This document shows, piece after piece, positions 1,956 through 46,729 of a stretch of DNA of 50,556 bases. The stretch is from Candidatus Micrarchaeota archaeon (lineage in GTDB: Archaea > Micrarchaeota > Micrarchaeia > Anstonellales > Anstonellaceae). Every line of letters begins with the position of its first letter. The first letter of the stretch is position 1. The notes beneath the pieces were generated by a model, which was not told the origin of the DNA, made no database searches, and saw nothing but the letters and a program-made list of their open reading frames with translations. The DNA is taken from assembly GCA_043806415.1 (NCBI GenBank), contig JAZDHB010000058.1:1-50556 (forward strand), given 5' to 3'. The position numbers and the translations under genes were made by a program.

Positions 1956-2741
1956 ATGCAAGACACCGAGAACTGGCCAGTGGTCATACTCTGCGGCGGG
2001 CAGGGCACGCGCATGCGCGAGGAGACCGAATTCAAGCCCAAGGCGATGGTCACCATCGGCGGGCAGCCGATCCTTGTGCACATCATGCGCACCTACGCCA
2101 AATTCGGATTCAAGCGCTTCATCCTCTGCCTGGGCTACAAGGGCGAGATGATCAAGGAGCATTTCCTCAAGGCGGAATTCAACGACAACGACTTCACCCT
2201 CCATCTCTCCGACCGCAAGATGGACGTCATCCACCGCTCGGCCAAGGGCGAGGACTGGGAGATCACCTTCGCTCAGACGGGCCTGAACGCCTCCACCGGC
2301 GCGCGCTTAAAGAAGATCGAGAAATACGTCGACACCCCTCATTTCCTGCTCACCTACGGAGACGGGGTGGCGGACATCGACCTCTCCCGGCTTGTGAAAT
2401 TGCACCTTCAGCAGAAGACCACGGCCACCCTCACGGGCGTCAAGCCGCCGGCCCGCTTCGGGCTCCTCGAGCTGGACGGGGACAAAGTGAAAAAATTCCG
2501 AGAGAAACCCATCATGAACGAATTTGTCAACGGCGGCTTCTACGCGTTCGACCGCAAGATATTCGGCCATCTCTCGTCCGACGACGCCTGCGTGCTGGAA
2601 TACGAGCTCTCCGAGCTGGCGGAGGAGGGGCAGCTCTCCATCTACCGGCACGAGGGCTTCTGGCACATGATGGACACCTACAAGGACTACCTGGACCTGA
2701 ACAAGGTGTGGGACGCGGGCAAAGCCAAATGGAAAGCGTGA
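1956..2741 (+). CDS. rfbF: Glucose-1-phosphate cytidylyltransferase
   Basis: 261 aa. VVILCGGQGTRMREETEFKPKAMVTIGGQPIL, LTYGDGVADIDL and GGFYAFD...EGFWHMMDTYKD are typical RfbF/DdhA blocks. Confidence 0.9.
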   Translation: MQDTENWPVVILCGGQGTRMREETEFKPKAMVTIGGQPILVHIMRTYAKFGFKRFILCLGYKGEMIKEHFLKAEFNDNDFTLHLSDRKMDVIHRSAKGEDWEITFAQTGLNASTGARLKKIEKYVDTPHFLLTYGDGVADIDLSRLVKLHLQQKTTATLTGVKPPARFGLLELDGDKVKKFREKPIMNEFVNGGFYAFDRKIFGHLSSDDACVLEYELSELAEEGQLSIYRHEGFWHMMDTYKDYLDLNKVWDAGKAKWKA

Positions 2742-2751
2742 GGTCCTTTTT

Positions 2752-3933
2752 TTGCTCGCAAAATTCTTTTCCAAAAAGCGTGTCCTCATCACCGGCCACA
2801 CCGGCTTCAAGGGAAGCTGGCTGGCCCAGATGCTCGTTTCCATGGGCGCGGACGTCTCGGGCTTCGCGCTTGAGCCCAACACCGACCCCAACCTCTATTC
2901 CCTCCTCTCGCTGGATTCCCGCCTCTCCAGCCGCATCGCAGACATCCGCCACTACGGCGACGTGCTTTCGGTCATCGAGGAAGAGAAGCCCGAGATCGTC
3001 TTCCACCTGGCCGCCCAGCCGCTCGTGCGCGCCAGCTACGACGACCCGCGCTACACGTTCGAGACCAACGCGATGGGCACCGTGAACGTGCTCGAAGCCA
3101 TCCGCCGCACCTCGTGCGTGCGCAGCGCCGTCCTCATCACCACCGACAAGGTGTATGAGAACAAGGAGGACGGCAAGCCCTTCGCCGAGGGCGATGCGCT
3201 GGGCGGGCATGACCCGTACAGCGCCTCGAAGGCGGCAGGCGAGATCGCGATCAGCTCGTACATCCGCTCGTTCTTCAACCCTTCCCCCGGCGGGGAAAAG
3301 CCCTCCCGTCCCGGCGCAGGCGAAAAGCCCGTTGCTTCGGGTTCGGCTGCGAGGGCCGCCCGTCCGCTCGCCGCCAGTCCGGGCTTGGGCGGGAAGGGCG
3401 CCGCTTCGGGCGCCGTCCCCTCTCTTCCCCTCATCGCATCCGCGCGCGCCGGCAACGTCATCGGCGGCGGGGACTGGTCCGCCGACCGCCTCGTGCCGGA
3501 CATCATCCGCGCCAAGGCGTCCGGCCAGGCGCTCGTCCTGCGAAACCCCTCCTCCATCCGCCCCTGGCAGCACGTGCTCGACCCGCTCTACGGCTATCTC
3601 CTGCTCGCCAAGGGGCTTGGCGGAGGCGACCGTCCGCTTGTGGGCGCATACAATTTCGCCCCGGACGAATCCAAGCCCATCACGGTGGAACAGATTGCCA
3701 GAAAGGCCGGGGTGAAATACTCGGTGCAGCCAGATGGCAAGAAGCACGAGGCCGGCACGCTCATGCTCGACGCGGGCAAGGCCAGGAAAATGCTGGGCTG
3801 GAAGCCCCGGCTGGACCTGGACGAATCGCTCCAGCTCACGTTCGAGTGGTATTCTCGCCATGCGGCCGGCGAGGACATGCTCAAATTCACACAGAAACAA
3901 ATCGACGACTACCTCAGGAAGGCGGAAAAATAA
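2752..3933 (+). CDS. rfbG: CDP-glucose 4,6-dehydratase carrying an internal low-complexity insertion of about 40 aa
   Basis: 393 aa. Rossmann motif VLITGHTGFKGSWL, catalytic YSASK, and RAGNVIGGGDW...RPWQHVLDPL. The insertion NPSPGGEKPSRPG...AVPSLP lies between SFFNP and ARAGNVIGGGDW. Confidence 0.85.
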   Translation: MLAKFFSKKRVLITGHTGFKGSWLAQMLVSMGADVSGFALEPNTDPNLYSLLSLDSRLSSRIADIRHYGDVLSVIEEEKPEIVFHLAAQPLVRASYDDPRYTFETNAMGTVNVLEAIRRTSCVRSAVLITTDKVYENKEDGKPFAEGDALGGHDPYSASKAAGEIAISSYIRSFFNPSPGGEKPSRPGAGEKPVASGSAARAARPLAASPGLGGKGAASGAVPSLPLIASARAGNVIGGGDWSADRLVPDIIRAKASGQALVLRNPSSIRPWQHVLDPLYGYLLLAKGLGGGDRPLVGAYNFAPDESKPITVEQIARKAGVKYSVQPDGKKHEAGTLMLDAGKARKMLGWKPRLDLDESLQLTFEWYSRHAAGEDMLKFTQKQIDDYLRKAEK

Positions 3934-3966
3934 GAAGCATCAGTCCGTCCGTTAAGCTCGATTTCA

Positions 3967-4282
3967 TCCGAACCGCGGAGGGACATGTGGCCTGATGGCC
4001 ACAATTCGACAACGGCTAAGCCGTTGTCGAGGGTCCGCCCCCCTCCCCAGTTTGAGGGCGAGCAGGCCTACGAAAGGCCTGCGCGCAAGCGTCGGCTTTG
4101 GCCGACGCTGCACCATCGGCCTACGGGCCGATGCTTGCGCAAGCCCCGCAGGGCTTGCTCGCCCGAGAGGCTCGACGCTTCGAGCCTCTGGGCACAGCCG
4201 GCAGCGGCCGGCTTATCGGCAAGTCTGTTGCCGACACAGTCGGCTCTCCAGAGCCGACTCGTGTCCTCCTGACCCTCCCCCC
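3967..4282 (+). repeat. Hairpin-mosaic repeat element, copy 1: ten consecutive stem-loops between conserved termini
   Basis: Termini are TCCGAACCGCGG (3967-3978), CCCCCCTCCCCAGTTT (4038-4053) and TCCTGACCCTCCCCCC (4267-4282). Perfect stem-loops lie at 3987-4002, 4006-4030, 4062-4082, 4088-4109, 4114-4133, 4139-4158, 4166-4189, 4196-4213, 4216-4234 and 4238-4259. Confidence 0.75.
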
Positions 4283-4293
4283 GAGGTTAGCTT

Positions 4294-5409
4294 ATGTCGT
4301 CTGTCCACGTAGTCGGCGCGGGTCCCGCGGGCTCTTTTGCGGCATTGAGCGCCCTAAAAGCCGGCCATGACGTCTATCTGTCCGAGGAGCACGAGCGCAT
4401 CGGCCAGCCCGTGCACTGCTCCGGGCTCGTCTCCGCCTCGGGCCTCAAGCAGATGGACGACGTCGTGCCCTGCAAGAAGGTCATCCGCAACCCCATCTAC
4501 CGGGCCAATTTGCACGGCGCGAATTCGTGTTTCTCGCTCTCCTACGCGCAGCCCAAGGCTTACGTCATCGAGCGCGGCAAATTCGACTTTCTCGCCGCCC
4601 GCAAATTCATCGACGCGGGCGGCAAGGTCCTCTCCGGGCACGGCGTGCGCCGCCTCGAGGACCTCAAGTCAAGGAATGTCATCGGCGCGGACGGTCCCAT
4701 CTCCACCATCTCGCGCCTCTTCGATTTCCCCCGCATCCGCGCCTACACCTCCTGCTGGCAGGGAGATTTCTCCTACCGGTGCATAGACACGGGGGCGGTG
4801 GAGGTCTTCTTCGACCCCCGCCTCTGCCCCGGATTCATTGGCTGGATAATTCCCACGAGCGAAGAGACGGCCGAAATCGGCCTGGGCGTGGCCAGCGCGA
4901 AAGGGCTCCATGCCGCGCGCAACCAATTCCTCTCAAAAATCGGCCTTAAAGACAAGAAGCCTGAATCCGAATTCTCGGCCCTCATCCCTCTTACCGTGCG
5001 CCAGAAAACAGGGAAAATCACAAATGGATACAACGTGGTGCTGGCGGGCGACGCCGCCGGACAGGTGAAGGCCTCTTCCGGGGGCGGCATCTTCTTCGGC
5101 TCCTCGTGCGGGCGCCTGGCCGGACAGTTGTTCGAGCATCCGGACGAATACGAGAAAGCCTGGCGCCAAAAATACGGCCTCGACCTCGCGCTCCACGGCC
5201 TTTTGCGCCGCGGCATCAATTCCCTCCCCTCTTTTGGCGTGGACTTGTGGCTGGCGAGCATGAAGGCCCTGCGCTTCGAGCGGCTGCTCGCCGAATCCGG
5301 CGAGATGGACGAATATTCCAAGATGCTCTCGCTGCGCAGCCTGGGAGCATGGGCGGGGGCATGGGCCGGGAATCCAAGGAAAAAGAGCGAATCAAGGAAA
5401 AAAGATTGA
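4294..5409 (+). CDS. Geranylgeranyl reductase family FAD-dependent oxidoreductase
   Basis: 371 aa. N-terminal VVGAGPAGSFAAL dinucleotide fold, VIGADGPIS, and VLAGDAAGQVKASSGGGI. A GAGGT Shine-Dalgarno-like sequence lies 8-12 nt upstream of the ATG. Confidence 0.8.
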   Translation: MSSVHVVGAGPAGSFAALSALKAGHDVYLSEEHERIGQPVHCSGLVSASGLKQMDDVVPCKKVIRNPIYRANLHGANSCFSLSYAQPKAYVIERGKFDFLAARKFIDAGGKVLSGHGVRRLEDLKSRNVIGADGPISTISRLFDFPRIRAYTSCWQGDFSYRCIDTGAVEVFFDPRLCPGFIGWIIPTSEETAEIGLGVASAKGLHAARNQFLSKIGLKDKKPESEFSALIPLTVRQKTGKITNGYNVVLAGDAAGQVKASSGGGIFFGSSCGRLAGQLFEHPDEYEKAWRQKYGLDLALHGLLRRGINSLPSFGVDLWLASMKALRFERLLAESGEMDEYSKMLSLRSLGAWAGAWAGNPRKKSESRKKD

Positions 5410-5476
5410 AAAATAAAAAGGAATCAAAAAAGATGGAGAAAAGAAAAAAGAATCAAAAAGAAAAAGAAATTCCGTC
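5410..5476 (-). terminator. Oligo-T tract terminator region for the minus-strand gene 5477..5971
   Basis: On the minus strand this spacer reads as repeated T5-T6 runs (TTTCTTTTTCTTTTTGATTCTTTTTTCTTTT...) directly after the stop. Archaeal termination is known to use oligo-T tracts. Confidence 0.45.
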
Positions 5477-5971
5477 CTACTGCAAATTCTTGAGAATCGC
5501 TTGCTCGATTTCGTACGCGAGCTTGTCCAGCGAATTGCGCGTTTCGTTCTTCCAGCTCGTGATGAGGTGACTGGCGGCCTTGTAGACGCCGTATGCCGCC
5601 GCGAGGACGGTCACTCCAATGCCTGCGCCATACGGGAAAATAGGGACGTAATAGCTAGCGTAATCGACCGCCCGCACCATGACCGGAGCCGCAATCGCCG
5701 CCGTGGCCACGAGGCCGGCCACGTACGCGGTCTTCTTTGCGCTCGTGGGCTTGAGCGTACCGTAGATTTGGACGTTTTGTTCTACCTGCTGGGTCTTTTG
5801 CGAAATCTCGTTAATCGGAAGATTGCCTTTACCGGTTTTCTGTGCCACCTTCATCGTGAGCCCCATGAGCGCATCCGGACCATTCCCGGTCTTGCAAGCC
5901 GAGAACACTTTTTTGGCGTCCGCTCTTGAAACATACTGCGCTTTAGGATATACTTGAGCCTGAACCATCAT
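5477..5971 (-). CDS. Hypothetical membrane protein
   Basis: 164 aa ORF with normal amino-acid composition and two hydrophobic segments (AYVAGLVATAAIAAPVMV, GAGIGVTVLAAAYGVY). A TATA-like ATATATGTATATAC lies upstream. I recognise no family. Confidence 0.5.
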   Translation of the reverse strand: MMVQAQVYPKAQYVSRADAKKVFSACKTGNGPDALMGLTMKVAQKTGKGNLPINEISQKTQQVEQNVQIYGTLKPTSAKKTAYVAGLVATAAIAAPVMVRAVDYASYYVPIFPYGAGIGVTVLAAAYGVYKAASHLITSWKNETRNSLDKLAYEIEQAILKNLQ

Positions 5972-6092
5972 ACCACCAAGTGCTAATGTGGTAACAGAAG
6001 TATATACATATATCTAGAACTCCGCTCCGACTGCGCCTTTTAAATGCCTGTCCGCCGTAATTCCATCATCCTTCTCTTGAAAGGCCTTTTCC

Positions 6093-6776
6093 ATGAAGTT
6101 CGACCTCCACGTCCATTCGGCTTATTCGCCCGACTGCGCCACGCCGCTAAAGAAGCTGGCCGAGCGATACGCTTCCCTGGGTTTTTCCGGCTTCGCGCTC
6201 AGTGACCACGGTTCCATGGACGGCCTCTCTCCCCTGCGCGCCCATGTGAAGGAAAAGAAGCTTCCGCTCGAAATCATCGGCGCCTGCGAATTCCTGTCCG
6301 ACCGGGGAGAGGTCATCGGCCTTTTCATCGAGGAGTTCATCCCCAAGCGCGATTTCGGAGAATTATGCGACGGCATCCACGATCAGGGCGGATTCGTCAT
6401 CCTGCCCCACCCCTTCGATTCGGTGCGCAAGAAAATCTGCCGCCCCGACCTTCTTCCCCCCGACCTGCTCCGCCACGTGGATGGACTGGAGGTGTTCAAC
6501 GCCCGCAGCGTATTTCCTGCCGACAACGCCAAATCCGCGGCTTTCGCAGCAGAGCACAAGCTCATGCGCACGGCCGGCTCGGACGCGCATTTCCTCTTCG
6601 AGGCCGGCAACGGCTTCGTCGACGTGCCGGATCCGGAAACCTTGGCCATCGCGCTCAAGAAGGGCCGCGCGACGATTGGCGGCTCGAGCGCGCCCTTCTT
6701 CGTGCACGGCCCGACCACGCTGGTCAAATGGGCGAAGAAATTCGGCATCATCAAAAAGCCGGCCAAATTCGCATAA
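6093..6776 (+). CDS. PHP-domain metal-dependent phosphoesterase
   Basis: 227 aa. The N-terminal KFDLHVHSAYSPD, later SDHGSMDG, and GSDAHF are PHP-family histidine motifs. Confidence 0.75.
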   Translation: MKFDLHVHSAYSPDCATPLKKLAERYASLGFSGFALSDHGSMDGLSPLRAHVKEKKLPLEIIGACEFLSDRGEVIGLFIEEFIPKRDFGELCDGIHDQGGFVILPHPFDSVRKKICRPDLLPPDLLRHVDGLEVFNARSVFPADNAKSAAFAAEHKLMRTAGSDAHFLFEAGNGFVDVPDPETLAIALKKGRATIGGSSAPFFVHGPTTLVKWAKKFGIIKKPAKFA

Positions 6777-6871
6777 GCCCGTTTTCTCGCGCGCGATGCC
6801 GGACCCCTGTTTTTCCGGTCCAATACCCTAACTGCGTGTGCCTTGTTTTCTGGCGCTCCAAAGGCGAATCC

Positions 6872-6879
6872 TATATAAA
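6872..6879 (+). promoter_or_regulatory. TATA box for uppS; the transcript is probably leaderless or has a very short leader
   Basis: TATATAAA lies 22-29 nt upstream of the ATG at 6901. Confidence 0.45.
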
Positions 6880-6900
6880 CCACGTCGTCTTTCTCCTATC

Positions 6901-7602
6901 ATGCCTTCCAAGCATACGGTCCGCCACGTCGCCATCATTCCCGACGGCAACCGGCGCTGGGCCAAGAAGCGCGGCCTTGACCCCCTCGAGGGCCACCGGC
7001 GCGGCATCGACCTCATGGGCGAGGTGCTCAAATGGGCGCGCGCCCACCAGGTGCGCACGGTGTCGTTCTGGGCGTTCTCCAGCGAGAATTTCAACCGCGA
7101 CAAGGAGGAGGTGGAAGGCCTTTTCAAGGCCTTCGAGACCAACCTCCAGAAAGTCCTCCAAGAAGGCGACTTTGACAAATACGGGGTGCGGGTGCGTTTC
7201 ATCGGCGACATCGAGCGCTTCCCCCCGCGCATCCGGCAGGGCGTGAGGGAGGTGGAGCGCAAGACCGCCAAGCACGATAAGTATTTCGTCAACCTCTTCA
7301 TCGGCTACGGCGGGCGGCCGGAGCTGGTGCACATGGCCCGGCGCGTCGCCAAGGATTTCGCCTTCCATCCCGACAAGATCGATGAGCAAGCCGTCGCCGA
7401 GCGGCTTTGGACCTCCGGCGTGCCAGACCCCGACCTCATCATCCGCACCTCCGGCGAGCAGCGCATCTCGGGCTTCATGCCATTCCAGTCCGCCTATTCC
7501 GAGCTCTATTTCTGCCAAAAGCTCTGGCCCGATTTTCGCAAGTCCGACTTTTCAGCGGCGCTCGCCGAATTCCGGCGAAGGAAAAGGCGTTGGGGGAAAT
7601 GA
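6901..7602 (+). CDS. uppS: Cis-prenyltransferase (undecaprenyl/di-trans,poly-cis-polyprenyl diphosphate synthase)
   Basis: HVAIIPDGNRRWAKKRG, FWAFSSENFNR, and IRTSGEQRISGFMPFQSAYSELYF are the canonical UppS blocks. The ATG at 6901 is chosen inside ORF 6838..7602. Confidence 0.9.
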   Translation: MPSKHTVRHVAIIPDGNRRWAKKRGLDPLEGHRRGIDLMGEVLKWARAHQVRTVSFWAFSSENFNRDKEEVEGLFKAFETNLQKVLQEGDFDKYGVRVRFIGDIERFPPRIRQGVREVERKTAKHDKYFVNLFIGYGGRPELVHMARRVAKDFAFHPDKIDEQAVAERLWTSGVPDPDLIIRTSGEQRISGFMPFQSAYSELYFCQKLWPDFRKSDFSAALAEFRRRKRRWGK

Positions 7603-8120
7603 GGATGGCAACGAAAAACAGTCCCCGCAAGAGGATGGCAACGAAGGCCGATCTCGACGACCGGACGGCCCGTCCCTCACTCATCATCAATCTTTCCAGC
7701 AAGCGCCGCCTTCCGGTCCGGCTCGAGAAGGCGGACACTATGCTCTCGCGCATGCGCGGCCTGATGTTCCGCCGCAAGCCCGCCTCCATCCTGTTCGTCT
7801 TCCCCAGCGAGGGCATCTATCCCATCCATTCCTTCTTCGTGCCCTTCGAGTTCGATGCCGTGTATCTTGACAGCCAGTGGCGGGTGAGCGGCATCTTCGA
7901 GCGCATCCGCCCCTTCGTCCCCTTCATCTCGCCGCCGAGCCCTTCGCTCATGCTTCTCGAGCTGGAGGCCGGCGCATCCAGAAAGCTCGGCCTCAAGATC
8001 GGGGACCGGATCGCCATCAAGATGGCGGAGCCGAAAAGCGCCATTGGGGGGGAAGGTCAGGAATTACCAAAAACTGGGGAGGGGGGCGCTCCCCCCTCCG
8101 CGGTTCGGAAGGGGGATTGA
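7599..8120 (+). CDS. DUF192-family protein (COG1430-like). Its C-terminal 24 codons and stop lie inside repeat copy 2.
   Basis: The ATG at 7599 overlaps the uppS TGA (ATGA). ADTMLSRMRGLMFRR...ILFVF...LLELEAGASRKLGLKIGDRI fits the DUF192 pattern. Confidence 0.65.
   Translation: MRMATKNSPRKRMATKADLDDRTARPSLIINLSSKRRLPVRLEKADTMLSRMRGLMFRRKPASILFVFPSEGIYPIHSFFVPFEFDAVYLDSQWRVSGIFERIRPFVPFISPPSPSLMLLELEAGASRKLGLKIGDRIAIKMAEPKSAIGGEGQELPKTGEGGAPPSAVRKGD
8046..8109 (-). repeat. Hairpin-mosaic repeat element, copy 2: minimal and inverted
   Basis: The reverse complement reads TCCGAACCGCGG-AGGGGGGAGCG-CCCCCCTCCCCAGTTT-TTGGTAAT-TCCTGACCTTCCCCCCC. These are the same three terminal motifs as copy 1, with almost no cargo. 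GGAGGGGGG-AGCG-CCCCCCTCC forms a 9-bp hairpin. Confidence 0.7.
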
Positions 8121-8121
8121 C

Positions 8122-9621
8122 ATGCCAACCGTTCAACCGGATCAAAATTCCAACCTGGGCTGGGAAATAAGCAAATCCAAGCCCGCTTACGATTCGCGCC
8201 TGCCGGTGCTCAGCCCGGACGAGCGCGATTTCCTGCTCGTGCTCTCCGCGCGCTTCTCGGACTATTCGCGCTCGCACGACGTGGCCAGCCCGGAAGCGGC
8301 CCGGGAGGCGGTCGGGCACCTGCTCCCGCTCGCGCTCGAGAGCGAGGGCCTGGAGATCGACGACGAGCAGCGCCAGTACCTCACCGCGGCGGCGCTCTCG
8401 CACCTGGCCGGATTCGCCCCGCTTGACTCCATGCTCTCCGACCCCCAGGTGGAGGAGATTGCGGCCCTGGGCGTCGACAAGCCCGTCTACGTCTATGTGC
8501 GCGCGAAGGGCTGGGCGCCGACCAACGCGCGAATCACCTCGATGGAGCACCTCGTCCATCTTATCAACAAGATGGCCCGCCCGCTGGGCCGGCGCATCAC
8601 CTCGCAATACCCTCGCCTCAACGCCCTGCTCTCCAACGGCAGCCGTTTGCACGCCTCCATCCCGCCGCTCTCGGACGGCGAGATCACCATCCGCCTGCAT
8701 TCCGCGCGCCCCTGGAGCGCCCTCGACCTCATGTCCTCCCATTCCACCAACGCGGAGGCGCTCGCCTTCCTCTGGCTGGCCTTCCAGTCCGACTCCTCGG
8801 TGATGATCGTCGGCAACACCTCGTCGGGCAAGACCACGCTTCTTAACGCCCTTTTCTCCTTCGTGCCCATGGGCGAGCGCGTGGTGCTCATCGAGGAAAC
8901 GCCCGAGCTGCGCCTCCTCCATCCGCACCGCGTGCAGCTCGTTTCAAGCGAGGAGCTTTCCATCGGCATGTCCGACCTGGTGCGCGATTCCCTGCGCATG
9001 CGCCCCGACCGCGTCATCGTCGGCGAGGTGCGCACGCCCCCCGAGGCGCAGGCCTTCGCCGAGACCCTGCTATCGGGCCAGGCGCGCGGTTCCTATGCCA
9101 CCTTCCACGGCCAGTCGGCGGCCGAAGCCTTGCGCCGCCTGCGCAACCTCGGCATCTCGGCCGACGACCTGCCCTCCCTGGATTTCATCGTCCTGCAGCG
9201 GCGCATCGCGCGCTACGATCCCAAGACCCTCAAGCAGGAAGAGCTGCGCCGGATGCTGGGCATCTACATGCTCCGGCAGAAACAGGTCGGCAACGAAAAA
9301 ACGGACAAGAAAGTGGCCTCGGCGAGAGGCAAGTCTTCGGTTTCATTGTCCGCTTCGTCATCGTCCCCGTCCGTTTTCTCCTCGTCCGACGCCATGTCCT
9401 CCATCGAGCTCGTCCCCATCTTCACCTACGACCCGCGCGCCGACAAGCTCGCGCCCGCGCCGGGCCTTGGCGATGCGCTCGAGCGCCTCTCCTCGCGCCT
9501 GGGCATGGACCGCGCCTCGGCGCATTCCATCTACCAATCCCGCAAGCAATTCCTCTCCCGCCTCAAACCGGCCCCGCCCGACGACATCACGAAGAAGGTG
9601 CAGGAATTCGCGTACCGTTAA
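8122..9621 (+). CDS. Type II/IV secretion system ATPase (archaeal PilB/ArlI-like)
   Basis: Walker A VMIVGNTSSGKTTLLNAL, Walker B-like VVLIEETPEL, and RMRPDRVIVGEVR...ATFHG. The ATG at 8122 follows the DUF192 stop by 1 nt. The C-terminal tail is Ser-rich. Confidence 0.85.
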   Translation: MPTVQPDQNSNLGWEISKSKPAYDSRLPVLSPDERDFLLVLSARFSDYSRSHDVASPEAAREAVGHLLPLALESEGLEIDDEQRQYLTAAALSHLAGFAPLDSMLSDPQVEEIAALGVDKPVYVYVRAKGWAPTNARITSMEHLVHLINKMARPLGRRITSQYPRLNALLSNGSRLHASIPPLSDGEITIRLHSARPWSALDLMSSHSTNAEALAFLWLAFQSDSSVMIVGNTSSGKTTLLNALFSFVPMGERVVLIEETPELRLLHPHRVQLVSSEELSIGMSDLVRDSLRMRPDRVIVGEVRTPPEAQAFAETLLSGQARGSYATFHGQSAAEALRRLRNLGISADDLPSLDFIVLQRRIARYDPKTLKQEELRRMLGIYMLRQKQVGNEKTDKKVASARGKSSVSLSASSSSPSVFSSSDAMSSIELVPIFTYDPRADKLAPAPGLGDALERLSSRLGMDRASAHSIYQSRKQFLSRLKPAPPDDITKKVQEFAYR

Positions 9622-9683
9622 TAAAGAAAGCGCGGGACTTCGCGTACCGTCAAAGCAGACGAATGAACCCCGAATAGCGAACG

Positions 9684-11636
9684 ATGACATGCGCATGGAA
9701 ATTTATTGGTGATCCATTGGCCGAACCGCTCCAATCGCTCGAAATCTTCGCCCCGCTCCCCCTGCACGCGCTCTATTCCGGGCCCCGCCGGCTCAAGATC
9801 GAATCGGACTGGCGGCGGGCGCACACGGGCCTCGCGCTCGAGCCGTTCCTCAATGCCTGCGCGCTTGCGGCCATCGTCCTCGCCCCCCTCATCAGCGCCA
9901 TCGCCTTCCTCTTCACGTCCGACCTCATCCTCTCCGTGGGCGTGTTCTTCGTCCTCTTCTCCCTTCTGCTGCTGGCCGGCTATTCGCTGCCCGCCCTGCT
10001 CGCGCGCAAATACGCCGACATGGCCGAGGCCGACCTGCCCATGGCCCTGCGCGCCATCGCCCTCCATCTTTCCATCAAGCTGCCGTTCGAGAAGGCGATC
10101 GAGCACGCGGCCGAGGCGAATTACGCCAGCTCGCCCCTCTGGAAAGAGGCCCTCGCGTCGGTGCAGGGCGGCGAGAGCGTGCCGCGCGCCCTCGCCGGAC
10201 TGGCCGAGGAGGTCCGCTCGCTGACCTTCTCGCGCGCCATCCACCAGCTCATCGTGGTCTATGAAGAGGGCGTGCCGCCCTCCTCGCTCATCCCGCTCGC
10301 CGAGGAGCTGACCGACCAGCAATTGACCAACACCCGCCTGTCCGCCTCGCGCATGGCCATGTTCGGGCTTCTCTTCATCTCCATCTCCTGCCTCGTGCCC
10401 GCGTTCTTCCTCATCCTGGCCGTGGCGGCCGGCCCGATGGTGGGCTTTGACGTGGACGGCCTCACGCTCGCCCTCGTCTACGTCGTGGCCATCCCCTTGC
10501 TCAACTTCCTGCTGATGGGCATCACGCTCCTCACGTCCCCCTCGCTGGCCAACTCGTGGCGACCCCGGCAATTGCGCGCCGAGCTGGATGCCAAGCTCCA
10601 GTCCATGAACCTGCCCGTCCTGACGACCGGCCCGCTCCTGGTCCTCTCCGTCCTCTTCGCGCTTCCCGTGCTTTCCGTCGGCCTGCTCCTCTCGCTGGGG
10701 AACCTGACCTTCTTCCTCGCCCTGCTGGCGGCCTCGCTTCCCTTCGTGGCCTTCTCGCTGCTCGAAGGGCAGGTGATGGGCGAGGTGGCGGCGCTCGAAT
10801 CCGAGCTGCCCAACCTCCTGCTCATCGGCGCCTCTTCGGGGCGCTTCTCGCTCGAGAAGATGCTGGAGCATTCCTCCAAGGGCCCGTCCGGCCCGCTCGC
10901 CGCCCAGTCCGCCGCCGCCCTGCGCCAGCTGCGCGCCGGGGAGAATCCGGTCCGGGTGCTCTCCCGCTGGGCCGAGCGCACGCCGTCCATCATGCTCGAG
11001 CGCGCGCTGGGCTTGCTTACGGTGGGCTACAAGACCGGCGGGCACCTCTCCACCGCCCTGCGCGCGACGGCGCAGGATCTCCTCTCCTCGTTCATGCTGG
11101 TGCGCGAGCGCGCCTCGCTGCTCTCCATCCAGAGCTACACCCTCATCGCGGCCAGCGGAATCCTCGTGCCCGCCATCCTCGCGGTCTCCCTCTCCTTCGC
11201 CGCGCAGATCGCCCCGCTGCAATCCCAGGTCGGCGCCAGCATCCTCAACCCGTCCGCCTCGCCGGTTTTAGCGGACGGTTCGTCCCTTTCGGCGACGCCG
11301 GCGGGCTCGGAGCGGATTGACACTTCCACCGGCTCTTCGGCTTCTTCCTCTTCAGGTTCCTCATCGCTCGATTCCTCATCGGCATCAGGCGATGGTTCGA
11401 GCCTCGGCTTTTCAGCCGACTCATCTTCTCCCGCTTCTCCATCCTCTGATTCTTCGGGCCTGGACCTCATCCGCTCGGCCGAGGGCTCGATCCGCATCTA
11501 TCTCCTGCTCAACGCCGCCCTCTCGGCCTTCTTCCTCTCCATCTCGCAGGGCTCGCGCGAGCGTTTCATCTATTATGCCATCATGCTCGTGGTGCTCTCG
11601 CAGGCCGTCTGGCTGTTCATGGCCCCGGCGCTATGA
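9684..11636 (+). CDS. Polytopic membrane protein with two T2SS-F-like domains (ArlJ/PilC/TadC-like platform protein) and a Ser-rich insertion
   Basis: 650 aa. It sits immediately downstream of the secretion ATPase, has many TM helices, and has two cytoplasmic helical domains (ADLPMALRAIALHL..., ELPNLLLIGAS...LSTALRATAQDL). A Ser-rich tract lies at about 11320-11460. Confidence 0.75.
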   Translation: MTCAWKFIGDPLAEPLQSLEIFAPLPLHALYSGPRRLKIESDWRRAHTGLALEPFLNACALAAIVLAPLISAIAFLFTSDLILSVGVFFVLFSLLLLAGYSLPALLARKYADMAEADLPMALRAIALHLSIKLPFEKAIEHAAEANYASSPLWKEALASVQGGESVPRALAGLAEEVRSLTFSRAIHQLIVVYEEGVPPSSLIPLAEELTDQQLTNTRLSASRMAMFGLLFISISCLVPAFFLILAVAAGPMVGFDVDGLTLALVYVVAIPLLNFLLMGITLLTSPSLANSWRPRQLRAELDAKLQSMNLPVLTTGPLLVLSVLFALPVLSVGLLLSLGNLTFFLALLAASLPFVAFSLLEGQVMGEVAALESELPNLLLIGASSGRFSLEKMLEHSSKGPSGPLAAQSAAALRQLRAGENPVRVLSRWAERTPSIMLERALGLLTVGYKTGGHLSTALRATAQDLLSSFMLVRERASLLSIQSYTLIAASGILVPAILAVSLSFAAQIAPLQSQVGASILNPSASPVLADGSSLSATPAGSERIDTSTGSSASSSSGSSSLDSSSASGDGSSLGFSADSSSPASPSSDSSGLDLIRSAEGSIRIYLLLNAALSAFFLSISQGSRERFIYYAIMLVVLSQAVWLFMAPAL

Positions 11637-19919: not shown

Positions 19920-20441
19920 TCATTCCCCTTTCCATTCTTTTTCCTTCACGCCCGCCTTCATGTTCTCGAATCTCGCGCGCGCGAAGAAATAGCTTGAGAG
20001 CCTGTTGAGGTACGCGAGCACCGGAGCCAAATCGTCCCTCCCGAGCGTCTGAACCCTTCTTTCCGCCCGCCGGCAGACGGCGCGCGCGAGGTGCAGCCGC
20101 GCGGCTATCTCGCTGCCCCCCGGCAATATGAAATGCCCAAGCTCGGGGAGCTTCTCGTCCATCTTGTCTATCCAGCCTTCCAGCCGTTTCAGTTTCTCCC
20201 CGAATCCGGGCGCTTTTTGCGCCAACGCAGCATTGCTTATGAGCGCGCCGGCCCCGAACAAATCGGCCTGTATCCGCCCCAGCTCATCGTCATCTCCGGC
20301 CTGTGCCTTGGCGATGCCGATGGCGGAGGACAGCTCGTCCAGCGAGCCGATGGCATAGAAAACGGCATCGCTCTTGGGCCTGCACTCGCCGTTTCCGAGA
20401 GTCGTCTGCCCGCCGTCGCCCTTGCCAGTGTATGATTTCAT
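19920..20441 (-). CDS. PduO-type ATP:cob(I)alamin adenosyltransferase
   Basis: The ATG at 20441 gives MKSYTGKGDGGQTTL. Also LDELSS.IG and FILPGGS..AA.LHLAR.VCRRAER, with GGAGG 6 nt upstream. Confidence 0.85.
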   Translation of the reverse strand: MKSYTGKGDGGQTTLGNGECRPKSDAVFYAIGSLDELSSAIGIAKAQAGDDDELGRIQADLFGAGALISNAALAQKAPGFGEKLKRLEGWIDKMDEKLPELGHFILPGGSEIAARLHLARAVCRRAERRVQTLGRDDLAPVLAYLNRLSSYFFARARFENMKAGVKEKEWKGE

Positions 20442-20480
20442 GTTTCCTCCTTTGGCAAGGGCCGAATTTAAGCGTATACA

Positions 20481-20613
20481 GTGCCCCCGCAAACTACAGT
20501 GGCCTGCGGGCCACTTACCGACAAGTCTGTTGTCGGACATGCGGGGCCACTTAATAGGCAACCACGGTGAATTGCCAACGCCAGAGAGTCGCAAAATTTT
20601 CGCGGTTGCCTAT
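20481..20613 (+). repeat. Degenerate relative of the hairpin-mosaic elements, lying between two divergent TATA boxes
   Basis: Hairpins AGTGGCC-TGCG-GGCCACT (20498-20515) and CCGACAA-GTCTG-TTGTCGG (20518-20536) are enclosed by GTGCCCCCGCA / TGCGGGGCCAC (20481-20491 / 20540-20550, one mismatch). A second domain is closed by ATAGGCAACC / GGTTGCCTAT (20554-20563 / 20604-20613). Confidence 0.45.
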
Positions 20614-25059: not shown

Positions 25060-25176
25060 TCCGAACCGCGGGGCGGGGCTTCGGCCCCTCCCCCCAGTTT
25101 CAGGTCGAGCAAGCCCTGCGGGGCTTGCGCGCGCAAGCCGTTGAAGCGGCTTGCTCGTCATCCTGACCCCCTCCCC
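25060..25176 (+). repeat. Hairpin-mosaic repeat element, copy 3
   Basis: TCCGAACCGCGG (25060-25071); GGGGC-TTCG-GCCCC (25075-25088); CCCCTCCCCCCAGTTT; hairpins at 25109-25128 (GCAAGCCC-TGCG-GGGCTTGC) and 25133-25154; TCCTGACCCCCTCCCC (25161-25176). Confidence 0.7.
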
Positions 25177-46623: not shown

Positions 46624-46645
46624 TTTCTTTTCCGCAGAAAAGAAA
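46624..46645 (-). terminator. T-rich hairpin 11 nt downstream of tRNA-Val
   Basis: The minus strand reads TTTCTTTTC-TGCG-GAAAAGAAA, a perfect 9-bp stem. Confidence 0.4.
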
Positions 46646-46656
46646 GGGGATTGAAT

Positions 46657-46729
46657 TGGACTCGCGCGGGATCGAACCGCGAATCTCCTCTGTGTGAGAG
46701 AGGCGTGTTAACCATTCCACCACGAGTCC
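46657..46729 (-). tRNA. tRNA-Val (anticodon CAC), no encoded CCA
   Basis: The reverse complement is GGACTCGTGGTGGAATGGTTAACACGCCTCTCTCACACAGAGGAGATTCGCGGTTCGATCCCGCGCGAGTCCA. It has a 7-bp acceptor stem GGACTCG/CGAGTCC, anticodon stem CCTCT/AGAGG with loop CTCACAC, and T arm CGCGG-TTCGATC-CCGCG. Confidence 0.9.

Follow-up and report, generated by a model that had tools for sequence, protein, structure and literature searches.

The window, a stretch of 50,556 nucleotides that makes up a complete contig of a Micrarchaeota MAG, carries a palindrome-rich spacer between a dehydratase gene and a GGR gene. The ten perfect hairpins of the original prediction are all in place, with stems of 7–11 bp and loops of 3–5 nt. 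Across the whole window there are 39 perfect hairpins (stem ≥7, loop 3–7), against 10–28 after block shuffling, and the spacer accounts for ten of the 39 inside 274 nt, or 0.5% of the window. The spacer holds a complete element, here called copy A; two further copies and one related block lie elsewhere in the window:

3967 to 4282, sense on the minus strand: copy A, a complete element consisting of a core and ten palindromic hairpins
4273 to 4282, minus strand: segment R, sense GGGGGGAGGG, a purine segment mirroring the purine strand of helix P1
4264 to 4272, minus strand: TCAGGAGGA (sense), the 5' side of the first permissive loop
4062 to 4259: cargo 1, eight consecutive perfect DNA palindromes between TCAGGAGGA and CCTCAAACT
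4038 to 4058, minus strand: sense CCCTCAAACT followed by R' (GGGGAGGGGGG), the junction and the purine strand of helix P1
3986 to 4030: cargo 2, two palindromes within the P1 loop
3967 to 3982, minus strand: sense CCCTCC-GCGGTTCGGA, the P1 pyrimidine strand Y and the conserved 3' end
3986–4003, 4006–4030, 4062–4082, 4088–4109 and 4114–4133: hairpins 1–5 of copy A
4139–4158, 4166–4189, 4196–4213, 4216–4234 and 4238–4259: hairpins 6–10 of copy A
25060 to 25176, sense on the minus strand: copy B, with alternating GCAAGCC/GGCTTGC palindromes
8046 to 8109, plus strand: copy C, a core without cargo, its first loop degenerate
20498 to 20536: a two-hairpin block homologous to part of the copy A cargo, outside any core element

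The gap between copy A and the ATG of the GGR gene (4294) is 11 nt and contains GAGGT, as had been noted; given this short distance, copy A is very likely co-transcribed with the GGR gene. It stands antisense both to its two neighbouring genes and to the orientation that the family takes in tRNA genes. In the nearest relatives the locus has different neighbours on both sides, a synteny break rather than an orthologous empty site. Copy B lies 13 nt (with GGAGGG) upstream of the gene for ribosomal protein L1 (25046 to 24399), and copy C sits in the 3' tail of a DUF192 open reading frame, 12 nt upstream of the ATG (8122) of a T2SSE ATPase gene. Gene callers read open reading frames through the element, as with DUF192 both in the window and in the relative L059.

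The frame motif TCCGAACCGCGG occurs exactly three times in the window, at 3967 (+), 25060 (+) and 8109 (−), where by our estimate about 0.006 chance occurrences of an exact 12-mer are expected, and the remaining two frame motifs follow in order in all three copies. The covariance model R1 likewise finds three copies only within the window; it detects only the 5' part of copy A because of the inserted cargo. We agree that the spacer is not a CRISPR array, there being no constant repeat unit in 3967–4282, and that it is not a tRNA. No Rfam family matches at threshold anywhere in the window (Rfam 15), the best sub-threshold scores being 20–22 bits against thresholds of 80–90. By inspection, a tRNA-like fold, a box C/D RNA, a K-turn and an HDV-like or other known ribozyme all failed to fit, and none gave an Rfam signal. 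No account of the family, whether by its motifs, as a Micrarchaeota repeat or as a DPANN tRNA intron, turned up in the searchable literature, and it is apparently undescribed.

A conserved core with a covarying helix

Two pattern scans of sequence collections yielded 93 distinct copies. As both patterns fixed AAACTGGGG and CGCGGTTCGGA, invariance at these positions is partly circular and divergent relatives are missed. By record title, the genome matches are almost all to Micrarchaeota or other DPANN MAGs, several per MAG; about five are bacterial, which is about the chance level, and the metagenome contigs carry no taxonomy. The spacer is one member of a dispersed repeat family in which the frame stays constant and the hairpin cargo varies, as had been proposed. 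The basic unit, present in many Micrarchaeota, is a core of about 60 nt without cargo: 78 of the 93 copies are bare, 14 carry about two unrelated hairpins, and the remaining one is copy A. Copy A is not borne out as the founder of the family: it is the most derived of the 93, and also the largest, with eight hairpins in one loop and two in the other.

What had been read as three termini are parts of one helix plus its partners, and the strand that carries the information is opposite to the one originally described; only in that orientation does the core end tRNA introns. The association with tRNA splicing, the target duplications and the mirror repeat could not be seen from the window by itself. 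On this sense strand the core reads R(GGGGGAGGG)-TCAGGAGGA-[loop]-CCTCAAACT-R'(GGGGAGGGGG)-[loop]-Y(CCCCCTCC)-GCGGTTCGGA. The segment TCAGGAGGA is almost invariant in alignment A1, though absent from both search patterns; GGGTCAGGAGGA and CCTC are nearly invariant beyond the patterns as well, and an AGGAGG is conserved in loop 1.

Near-identical cores occur across genomes of very different GC content, which is unusual for a purely selfish repeat. It counts against the mobile-element reading given below and suggests a host function or a dedicated protein partner, though no such partner was found.

The segments R' and Y form a covarying helix, P1. In total 98.8% of cells are paired, against 38–62% in slid controls, and 91 cells have two-sided changes against 18.8 in shuffles, with none of 500 shuffles reaching the observed value. 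P1 may be extended downwards by AACUG/CGGUU and CC/GG, pairs that are fixed by the search patterns.

The purine segments R and R' covary as mirror images. The relation n1 = n5+1 holds in 84% of 76 copies, with the classes (3,4), (4,5), (5,6) and (6,7); copy A has n5=3 and n1=4, and 10 of its 11 positions are mirrored. Matched R/R' pairs beat all of 5000 permutations, a test that overstates independence in that the copies are related by descent. A Watson-Crick helix between R and Y, considered as an alternative, predicts a direct repeat of R', and the minority types favour the mirror (identity 0.90, against 0.64 for the direct repeat). A G-quadruplex is possible for the majority type; it leaves unexplained an A position in R that tracks the A of R', and types with only two long G-runs speak against it. 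Because R is the mirror image of R', it could lie on P1 as a third strand, and the covariation fits a putative purine-motif triplex, natural candidates of this kind being rare. For RNA, such triplexes have little support, and the mirror repeat may have another meaning.

Turnover of the palindromic cargo

The cargo consists of palindromes at the DNA level, with stems that are Watson-Crick perfect and almost free of G-U pairs, and it turns over. Modules are shared and flipped between copies, as the original prediction held: hairpin 6 of copy A (4139–4158) and the copy B hairpin at 25109–25128 agree at 20/20 positions as reverse complements and at 18/20 directly. The pair of hairpins with GTCTG loops is equally real, and belongs to a longer two-hairpin block; 4196–4234 of copy A and 20498–20536 have loops and linkers in common and compensatory changes in both stems, with no R1 match near 20460–20600. 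Hairpin blocks are common to non-orthologous copies and differ at the orthologous site of a close relative. The site of copy C, 64 nt in the window, measures about 173 nt in L059, where four extra hairpins close to copy A modules stand at other core positions; the hairpin pair of copy A cargo 2 is also found at this site. The insertions of 57 and 51 nt in L059 are both multiples of 3; this preservation of the frame is not significant, because all sense frames of the core are free of stop codons.

In copy A, cargo 1 is bracketed by CGAG...CTCG. Hairpins occupy about the same position in L006, L031, L032, L043 and L044, and lie a few nucleotides upstream of it, inside TCAGG, in L056. Through the cargo one may follow how perfect palindromes in DNA originate, change places and disappear between close genomes.

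tRNA introns and target duplications

In 14 loci the core forms the 3' end of a tRNA intron, in the T-loop or the anticodon loop, and its orientation is fixed: in-silico removal of the segment that ends at the core restores the tRNA in 14 loci in sense and in no genuine antisense case. Restoration of the RNA on removal, by which BHB-type introns are recognized, was seen for the family in these loci and not for window copies A, B and C, none of which lies inside an RNA gene. A 3' cut exactly after GGTTCGGA works in at least 9 of the 14; in L055 such a cut yields a 75-nt tRNA-Arg(CCG). The Rfam tRNA model spans the intron in L024, and the host in L017 is the tRNA-Ala of an rRNA operon. We considered remnants of integrase att sites and rejected them, as the tRNA is not completed at the upstream junction, so that these are introns rather than attL/attR pairs. 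Most of the host tRNAs escaped ARAGORN; core-bearing introns defeat standard tRNA finders.

Excision would be the work of the splicing endonuclease: in tRNA genes, the broad-specificity enzyme of the lineage would take out the core together with the remainder of the intron. A broad-specificity epsilon2 endonuclease is known from this lineage, and that of ARMAN-2 cuts relaxed hBH motifs at position 59/60 (PMC3239211). Base pairing is possible between the terminal UUCGGA and a T-loop reading UUCGAA or UUCAAA, with 3 nt bulged out beside the T-stem. By inspection, the pairing with the T-loop UUCGAA is 6/6 in L055, with the bulge AAU beside the T-stem, and 5/6 in L017. It competes with the internal AACUG/CGGUU pairing and is poor in the anticodon-loop cases; neither it nor a textbook bulge-helix-bulge is present in the MFE folds of two pre-tRNAs, and no second bulge or h' helix was found.

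The family has a sharp boundary after ...GGTTCGGA, which in copy A is window position 3967. Direct duplications from offset 0, starting exactly at ...GGTTCGGA, are present in 16 of 88 copies; about 12 of the 16 are duplications of 9–54 nt of local flank, where controls give about one chance match per offset. About 85% of copies have no duplication. The flank of the sharp end shows a weak purine bias only and no strict 4–5-nt target, and the 5' end is undefined, with no conserved terminus and with linkers that differ among copies. A MITE was rejected: there are no terminal inverted repeats, the two ends not being inverted repeats of each other, and the duplications have no fixed length (9–54 nt, in about 14% of copies). 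A promoter with its transcription start at the boundary was also set aside, the only A/T-rich patch lying some 34–39 nt from the boundary with an intervening P1 that varies from 16 to about 80 nt, so that no TATA distance is fixed.

Origin of the element and comparison with known systems

We consider it probable, at roughly 60%, that copy A represents a small mobile Micrarchaeota element, intron-capable and with loops that collect palindromes, in a greatly expanded intergenic form. New copies would originate in DNA, some of them accompanied by target duplications that vary in length and begin exactly at the GGTTCGGA end; both loops would tolerate insertions, so that perfect Watson-Crick palindromes could accumulate and be swapped there, and cargo gain of this kind would have turned a 60-nt unit into the 316-nt array at 3967–4282. 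Copy A itself is probably a passenger in the dehydratase-GGR transcript, a structured spacer presumed neutral and without a dedicated function. What the data show is family membership, the core structure, the association with tRNA introns and its orientation, the duplications, the turnover of cargo and the mirror covariation; excision by the endonuclease, the triplex, the way in which copies move and the neutrality of copy A are inferred. No transposase, integrase or reverse transcriptase is linked to the element, an observation that speaks against a mobile element.

The core might instead be a cis-acting RNA module of the host, a leader, processing or stability signal at gene boundaries that cuts or protects transcripts, for example by freeing downstream RNAs at ...GGUUCGGA, with the arrays tuning stability or separating cistrons. 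Conservation across the phylum and the AGGAGG in loop 1 argue for it, as does the frequent contact of the sense 3' boundary with a start codon or the 5' end of a tRNA: 11 copies lie directly before an ATG, L041 lies 1 nt before a tRNA-Leu, and copies B and C stand 12–13 nt before ATGs with a Shine-Dalgarno sequence between. There is also a precedent in HVO_1309, where an intron excised by the endonuclease lies in an archaeal 5' UTR (PMC7714728). However, several of the neighbouring ATGs open reading frames of only 2–13 codons (L001, L043, L051), and many copies instead border convergent genes at their stop codons or, as copy A does, run antisense; in a compact genome, dense gene packing explains why they abut gene boundaries. 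The bias in downstream gene orientation is weak (49 vs 34, a crude and noisy estimate drawn from long open reading frames, a method we rejected as too noisy after it misassigned copy B), and target duplications together with presence or absence between relatives indicate insertion rather than designed sites. We regard such a host module as unlikely. Alternatively, the copies could be REP/BIME- or PATE-like substrates of an IS200/IS605 (TnpA/RAYT) single-strand DNA transposase encoded elsewhere in the genome, with the tRNA introns secondary and tolerated. Palindromes that are perfect in the DNA and flipped, the lack of inverted terminal repeats, and one precise end opposite an ill-defined one would suit this. 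The ends of IS608 specify cleavage sites through base triples, which the mirror and triplex-type contacts recall; on the other side, hairpins in REPs are one repeated sequence, which those of the core family are not. Haloarchaeal PATEs similarly lack ITRs, have near-terminal palindromes and are invaded by small repeats, but neither they nor IS200/IS605 elements make target duplications (PMC3119063), unlike the approximately 12 core copies with duplications of 9–54 nt. The lack of a strict 4–5-nt target beside the sharp end is a further point against, and the strict orientation in tRNA genes (14 vs 0) indicates a constraint at the RNA level; we think this origin quite improbable.

Spread through RNA is a sub-hypothesis on mobility only and is compatible with a mobile, intron-capable element: an excised intron or leader fragment ending in ...GGUUCGGA-3' would be copied into DNA from a primer at the target site. 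A sharp 3' end, a 5' end that is undefined and has unrelated linkers, and duplications of 9–54 nt from offset 0 together form the classic signature of target-primed copying; the sharp end also falls at the inferred 3' splice site. Yet no reverse transcriptase was identified, linkers within the same genome are not homologous (L003, L016, L034), contrary to a single source RNA, and some DDE transposases (the IS1634 group) likewise make long variable duplications; this route has, in our judgement, little chance of being correct. Metagenome assemblies can mis-join repeats, and a tandem copy in L049 contains a run of N, so that an array produced by chance or by assembly of GC-rich sequence has to be weighed. 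Nevertheless, about 90 independent contigs, drawn from many studies, share the core; a density of ten perfect hairpins in 274 nt is far outside the shuffles; and L059, assembled independently, and with it L060 from a separate read set, has homologous hairpin blocks. We give the idea almost no credence.

A bolder extension of the mobile-element reading, which we offer as a speculative possibility, is that the family represents a new class of archaeal mobile intron, with a triplex fold in which R lies on the R'/Y helix, a 3' end complementary to the T-loop and offered to the tRNA splicing endonuclease, and spread through the excised RNA or a single-stranded intermediate that ends precisely at ...GGUUCGGA. 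An intron class with this end would account for 3' ends that are sharp, 5' ends that vary and duplications of varying length; if it exists, it would link tRNA-intron gain directly to a transposing element, and the loops of the core would be nurseries for new palindromic DNA. The gain of introns at unusual positions in archaeal tRNA genes has long been a puzzle; that such introns transpose has been inferred, and we know of no earlier mobile unit seen both inside and outside tRNA genes. With the present family, which we regard as such a unit, intron gain can be put to the test in Micrarchaeota, of which some now grow in co-culture.

Intramolecular triplexes (H-DNA, ENE/MALAT1) resemble the core in having a purine mirror repeat beside a complementary pyrimidine strand; the order R ... 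R'-loop-Y is the layout required for a purine-motif (R.R-Y) triplex, and both A and T are tolerated opposite A. Known RNA triplexes (ENE/MALAT1) consist of U.A-U and C+.G-C triples and protect 3' ends, whereas the putative triplex of the core would use the purine motif. REP/BIME mosaics and Rickettsia palindromic elements are fair analogies, as originally drawn. Bacterial REP/BIME mosaics and REPINs are clusters of GC-rich extragenic palindromes in alternating orientation between genes, and copy A likewise clusters GC-rich palindromes in a modular intergenic mosaic that is possibly long-lived in the lineage. In contrast to REP/BIME, the ten stems of copy A differ in sequence with few recurring blocks and no single consensus, the hairpins are carried as cargo by a non-palindromic frame that stays constant, the family lives in archaea without a known RAYT, and target duplications occur. 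Rickettsia palindromic elements are palindromic repeats that can sit in-frame within open reading frames, as does copy C in the tail of the DUF192 frame, which reads through it. Neither variable cargo in a conserved frame nor a connection with tRNA splicing is known for them, and the core family is of unrelated sequence and host.

A further comparison is with haloarchaeal PATEs and SMR-A, which are also palindrome-rich non-coding archaeal repeats without inverted terminal repeats, the small mobile SMR-A repeats nesting in palindromic regions of other elements (PMC3119063). The core differs from PATEs, which derive from IS605-type transposons, make no target duplication, are unrelated in sequence and are not reported there as tRNA introns (PMC3119063). 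The last comparison is with archaeal BHB/hBH introns, among them the 'transposed' introns known from Thermoproteales and those of the non-canonical 59/60 type in ARMAN-2 (PMC3239211 and its ref. 29). These agree with the core-bearing introns in their anticodon-loop and T-loop sites, in a single orientation, in the normal tRNA restored on removal, and in the occurrence of related intron sequences in different tRNAs. Unlike them, the core is only the 3' part of far longer introns (about 90–200 nt), has a mirror repeat and expandable loops, and shows no canonical BHB in folds; moreover, most copies lie outside RNA genes, in intergenic spacers, 5' leaders and the tails of open reading frames, so that one conserved 60-nt module both ends tRNA introns and is scattered between protein genes, in some copies with target duplications.

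The repeat in the window and its core

Inverted-repeat and hairpin scans bore out the original description of ten consecutive perfect hairpins at 3967-4282, placing ten perfect stem-loops between 3986 and 4259; the stems measure 7-11 bp and the loops 3-5 nt. The entire 50.6-kb window holds 39 comparable perfect hairpins, against 10-28 in block shuffles, and ten of the 39 are packed into 274 nt. The exact 12-mer TCCGAACCGCGG occurs three times in the window, at 3967(+), 25060(+) and 8109(-), and each time CCCCAGTTT and TCCTGACC(C/T)TCCCC come after it in the same order; the frame of three motifs proposed to recur at 25060-25176 and 8046-8109 is thus present in all three copies (A, B and C). The GCAAGCCC hairpin common to copies A and B matches at 20/20 positions as the reverse complement, confirming the suggested flipping of a module.

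Copies of the repeat in the window and genes beside copy A (strand of a copy: its sense strand)
Stop codon 3931-3933, plus: dehydratase-like gene (CDP-glucose/GDP-mannose 4,6-dehydratase), 5' of copy A
3967-4282, minus: copy A
4294-5406 (ATG at 4294), plus: GGR-like gene, 3' of copy A
8046-8109, plus: copy C, in sense orientation, within the tail of a DUF192 ORF; a T2SSE-type ATPase gene starts 12 nt downstream
25060-25176, minus: copy B, in sense orientation; the ribosomal protein L1 gene starts 13 nt downstream

Alignment gave the consensus nGGGGGAGGGTCAGGAGGAnCCTCAAACTGGGGAGGGGG-nnnn-CCCCCTCCGCGGTTCGGA on the strand opposite to that first read, with GGGTCAGGAGGA and CCTC almost invariant, although neither was included in the search patterns. 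RNAalifold predicts a single long hairpin (CC / UCA bulge / AACUG / G / 8-bp G-rich stem and its complement, ending CGGUU-C-GG-A). Its helix P1, formed by a purine segment R' and a pyrimidine segment Y, is 98.8% paired, with changes on both sides of seven pairs among 77 distinct sequences and 91 doubly changed cells versus 18.8 in shuffles (0/500 reach 91), and slid controls are only 38-62% paired; because the sequences were aligned by fitting them to the model, and the search patterns fix the lower pairs, these figures are evidence for the upper stem only. Additional hairpins, or cargo, mostly occupy two positions: loop 1, between TCAGGAGGA and CCTCAAACT, and loop 2, the loop of P1. Copy A carries eight in the former and two in the latter. 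The exceptions are L056 (L-numbers denote loci or contigs from the scans and relatives), where cargo splits TCAGG itself, and L059, with two hairpins within the 5' G-run.

The purine segment R, before TCAGG, is the mirror image of the R' strand, not a direct or inverted copy of it. With n5 the G-run before TCAGG and n1 that after AAACT, n1 = n5+1 in 84% of 76 distinct copies, the (n5,n1) classes being (3,4) in 46, (4,5) in 11, (5,6) in six and (6,7) in one. The interrupting A shifts in step (GGGGGAGGG with GGGGAGGGGG, GAGGAGGGGG with GGGGGGAGGA, GGAAAGGGGG with GGGGGGAAAA; in copy B, GGGGAGGGGG with GGGGGGAGGGG), and facing the A of R', R carries A or T. The correlation of n5 with n1 (r = 0.71; 0/10,000 permutations) and the mirrored fraction of 0.87 versus 0.63 with partners permuted (63 distinct R/R' types; 0/5000) carry p-values that overstate independence, the copies being related by descent; among 23 minority types, mirror identity is 0.90 versus 0.64 for a direct repeat. 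The mirror repeat and the order R...R'-loop-Y fit a candidate antiparallel purine-motif triple helix on the sense strand, and a pyrimidine-motif equivalent could form on the antisense strand of the majority type only.

Size and distribution of the family

The pattern TCCGAACCGCGG-N(10-40)-CCCCAGTTT matched 58 loci in a collection with a single genome for each species, against an estimated chance expectation of ~8 matches. By the taxonomy named in the records, nearly all lie in MAGs of Micrarchaeota or other DPANN archaea, often several per MAG; five bacterial matches lack the remainder of the element. Metagenomes yielded 83 further loci with a looser pattern, ~55 of them real, and 93 distinct copies were left from both scans once duplicates had been removed. 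Bare cores of ~60 nt (45-56 nt from TCAGG to the 3' end) make up 78 of the 93, and in 14 extra hairpins add 40-90 nt; copy A and L119 exceed the rest in length, the latter an apparent tandem core pair spanned by the length measure. Copy A is a derived copy rather than the founder it had been taken for, since bare cores predominate and it is, by a wide margin, the longest single element.

Within the window, a covariance model trained on 40 bare cores matched copies A, B and C only. Rfam 15 gave no match at gathering thresholds, and sub-threshold matches were noise. A literature search for the motifs and for such a Micrarchaeota repeat found no description.

In the metagenome Ga0272448, at least 11 contigs (L070, L082, L090, L099, L106, L109, L114, L119, L123, L128, L137) have a core of the G5-A/T-G4 type, followed in most by (A/C)GGAAAAGAAAAGT, suggesting that a composite repeat is highly abundant there. 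Whole intron units or cores stand in tandem or near-tandem at L049 6248-6689, L013, L082 3927-4035 and L119; a run of N breaks the L049 repeat, where assembly collapse or expansion is possible.

tRNA introns and target duplications

The Rfam tRNA model stretches over 195 nt in L024, where the reverse-complemented frame forms the final 62 nt of a ~122-nt intron one base past the anticodon of tRNA-Thr(CGU). The tRNA-Ala between the 16S and 23S rRNA genes of L017 has a ~150-nt T-loop intron that ends with the core. For every copy, each possible upstream end was joined in silico to the sequence after the core, and ARAGORN was asked for a tRNA spanning the junction. A tRNA was restored in 14 loci in the sense orientation and in one locus in the opposite orientation, an artefact of an intact tRNA nearby. 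A 3' cut exactly after GGTTCGGA gives a tRNA in at least nine loci, and in L055 removal of 116 nt leaves a canonical 75-nt tRNA-Arg(CCG). Junctions were in the T-loop or the anticodon loop, apart from one at about position 48-50. The family thus includes introns of RNA genes, whereas copies A, B and C all lie outside RNA genes.

The tRNAs of ARMAN-2 (Micrarchaeum) are “highly disrupted by introns,” position 59/60 included, where its epsilon2 endonuclease cuts relaxed hBH motifs (PMC3239211). By inspection, the terminal UUCGGA could pair with the near-palindromic T-loop at 6/6 positions with UUCGAA (L055) and 5/6 with UUCAAA (L017), which would leave a bulge AAU beside the T-stem; this candidate pairing, absent from MFE folds, would be a relaxed hBH-type motif. 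A second bulge was sought and not found.

Further features were seen around tRNA and rRNA genes. In the L017 rRNA operon (2073-7395, minus), from another Micrarchaeota MAG, the 16S Rfam match begins only at model position 830, which may reflect a large insertion or intron, and the spacer tRNA-Ala is interrupted by introns twice, after the anticodon and in the T-loop. A polypyrimidine/polypurine hairpin, TTTCTTTTC-CGCA-GAAAAGAAA, lies at window 46624-46645, directly after tRNA-Val (46657-46729, minus). Similar CCCTTTTCTTTT...AAAAGAAAAGG hairpins begin the core-ended T-loop introns of L017, L036, L049, L056 and L057, and in L042 and L044 they come after tRNA 3' ends; they may represent another conserved module or a signal resembling a terminator. 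The sharp end of the core abuts complete tRNA genes in L012, L015, L033 and L041, antisense just past the 3' end in three and 1 nt before the 5' end in L041, and the non-sharp end lies 24 nt upstream of one in L028; ARAGORN missed most intron-bearing host tRNAs in the MAGs of these five loci.

The sequence right after GGTTCGGA recurs upstream of the element in 16 of 88 testable copies, about 12 of these being duplications of the local flank (9-54 nt) and three others tandem units; control offsets gave about one independent chance match each.

Lengths of the local-flank duplications (nt)
L003 15; L009 24; L026 27; L032 38; L035 54; L039 9
L046 15; L054 12; L081 10; L083 20; L103 11; L122 33

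The 3' end is sharp, since every duplication begins at offset 0, and the 5' end is undefined, because the stretch from the upstream duplicate to segment R differs and is unrelated among copies. At the insertion flank a purine bias is seen, but no strict target sequence. Cores often touch start or stop codons and tRNA ends, most simply explained by very short intergenic spacers, and several neighbouring “ATG” codons start ORFs of just 2-13 codons. At L003 (268-352), the 15-nt duplication contains the start codon; from its upstream duplicate, ~21 nt downstream of the TATA-like ATAATAAAAT, the reading frame runs on across the 69-nt element and into the gene, which would add 28 residues to the N terminus unless the RNA is cleaved at the boundary.

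Cargo turnover and the nature of the element

The relative L059 has a GGR 88% identical to that of the window, with synteny downstream of it. Copy C and a copy in L059 are orthologous, because the same degenerate core, GGTCAGGAATTACCAAAAACTGGGGA, lies at the DUF192/T2SSE junction in both; the copy is 64 nt in the window versus ~173 nt in L059, which has two hairpins in the P1 loop besides those in the G-run. These four hairpins and their linkers are near-identical to copy A blocks 4114-4133, 4088-4109, 4006-4030 and 3986-4003, at partly different core positions. The two-hairpin block 4196-4234 of copy A recurs at 20498-20536 with compensatory changes in both stems, as had been noted for the hairpin at 20518-20536; this second site is outside any core, 5' of the cob(I)alamin adenosyltransferase gene (19923-20441, minus), where 20460-20600 is a nested hairpin cluster with no core motifs and no Rfam match. 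Because cargo stems are perfectly Watson-Crick, with almost no G-U pairs, and modules are also flipped, their sequences point to DNA as the level at which palindromes arise and are corrected, presumably by fold-back synthesis or hairpin-templated repair; under selection on RNA pairing, G-U pairs would be expected.

The DUF192 ORF (7638-8120) continues across copy C and stops at a TGA that overlaps the region where the next gene starts, with its Pfam domain ending at residue 127/160. In L059 the called ORF (9357-9950) extends through the 173-nt copy, whose two hairpin insertions of 57 and 51 nt are both multiples of 3; this may be chance, because all sense frames of the core are free of stop codons.

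Copy A is antisense to both neighbours, its sense strand being minus and both genes plus. It ends 11 nt before the GGR ATG, as stated originally, and given this distance and the absence of any A/T-rich stretch inside, it is probably transcribed within the GGR leader or operon spacer. The proposed comparison of orthologous spacers (window ~3934-4293, L059 5780-6000, L145 1511-1597) yielded no clean empty site: the core is absent from the nearest relatives on the dehydratase 3' side (L144, L145) and the GGR 5' side (L059), and the flanks differ (the dehydratase is followed by a Fic gene, and GGR is preceded by AbiEii or TPR genes), which places copy A at a synteny break. An AT-rich promoter-like region stands upstream of GGR in L059 instead of the element.

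We favour, with a probability of about 0.6, an intron-capable mobile element that is spread across Micrarchaeota and gathers DNA palindromes in its two loops, copy A being its most swollen copy and probably a passenger. The main rival, a core used by the host as an RNA processing or leader module, has phylum-wide conservation in its favour and seems to us unlikely. Among known mobile elements, a MITE was rejected, as fixed-length duplications and terminal inverted repeats are absent (lengths 9-54 nt). IS200/IS605 elements and PATEs insert without target duplications (PMC3119063), and the duplications in about 12 copies go against an element of either type. The duplication pattern is like that of target-primed copying, with a molecule ending at GGUUCGGA as the template, a tentative hypothesis, with no reverse transcriptase in evidence.

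The original finding holds up, and there is more of interest to it than one window alone suggested. The mobile element favoured here combines features of endonuclease-spliced tRNA introns and of palindromic intergenic repeats; its mirror-repeat signature and variable target duplications are found in neither.
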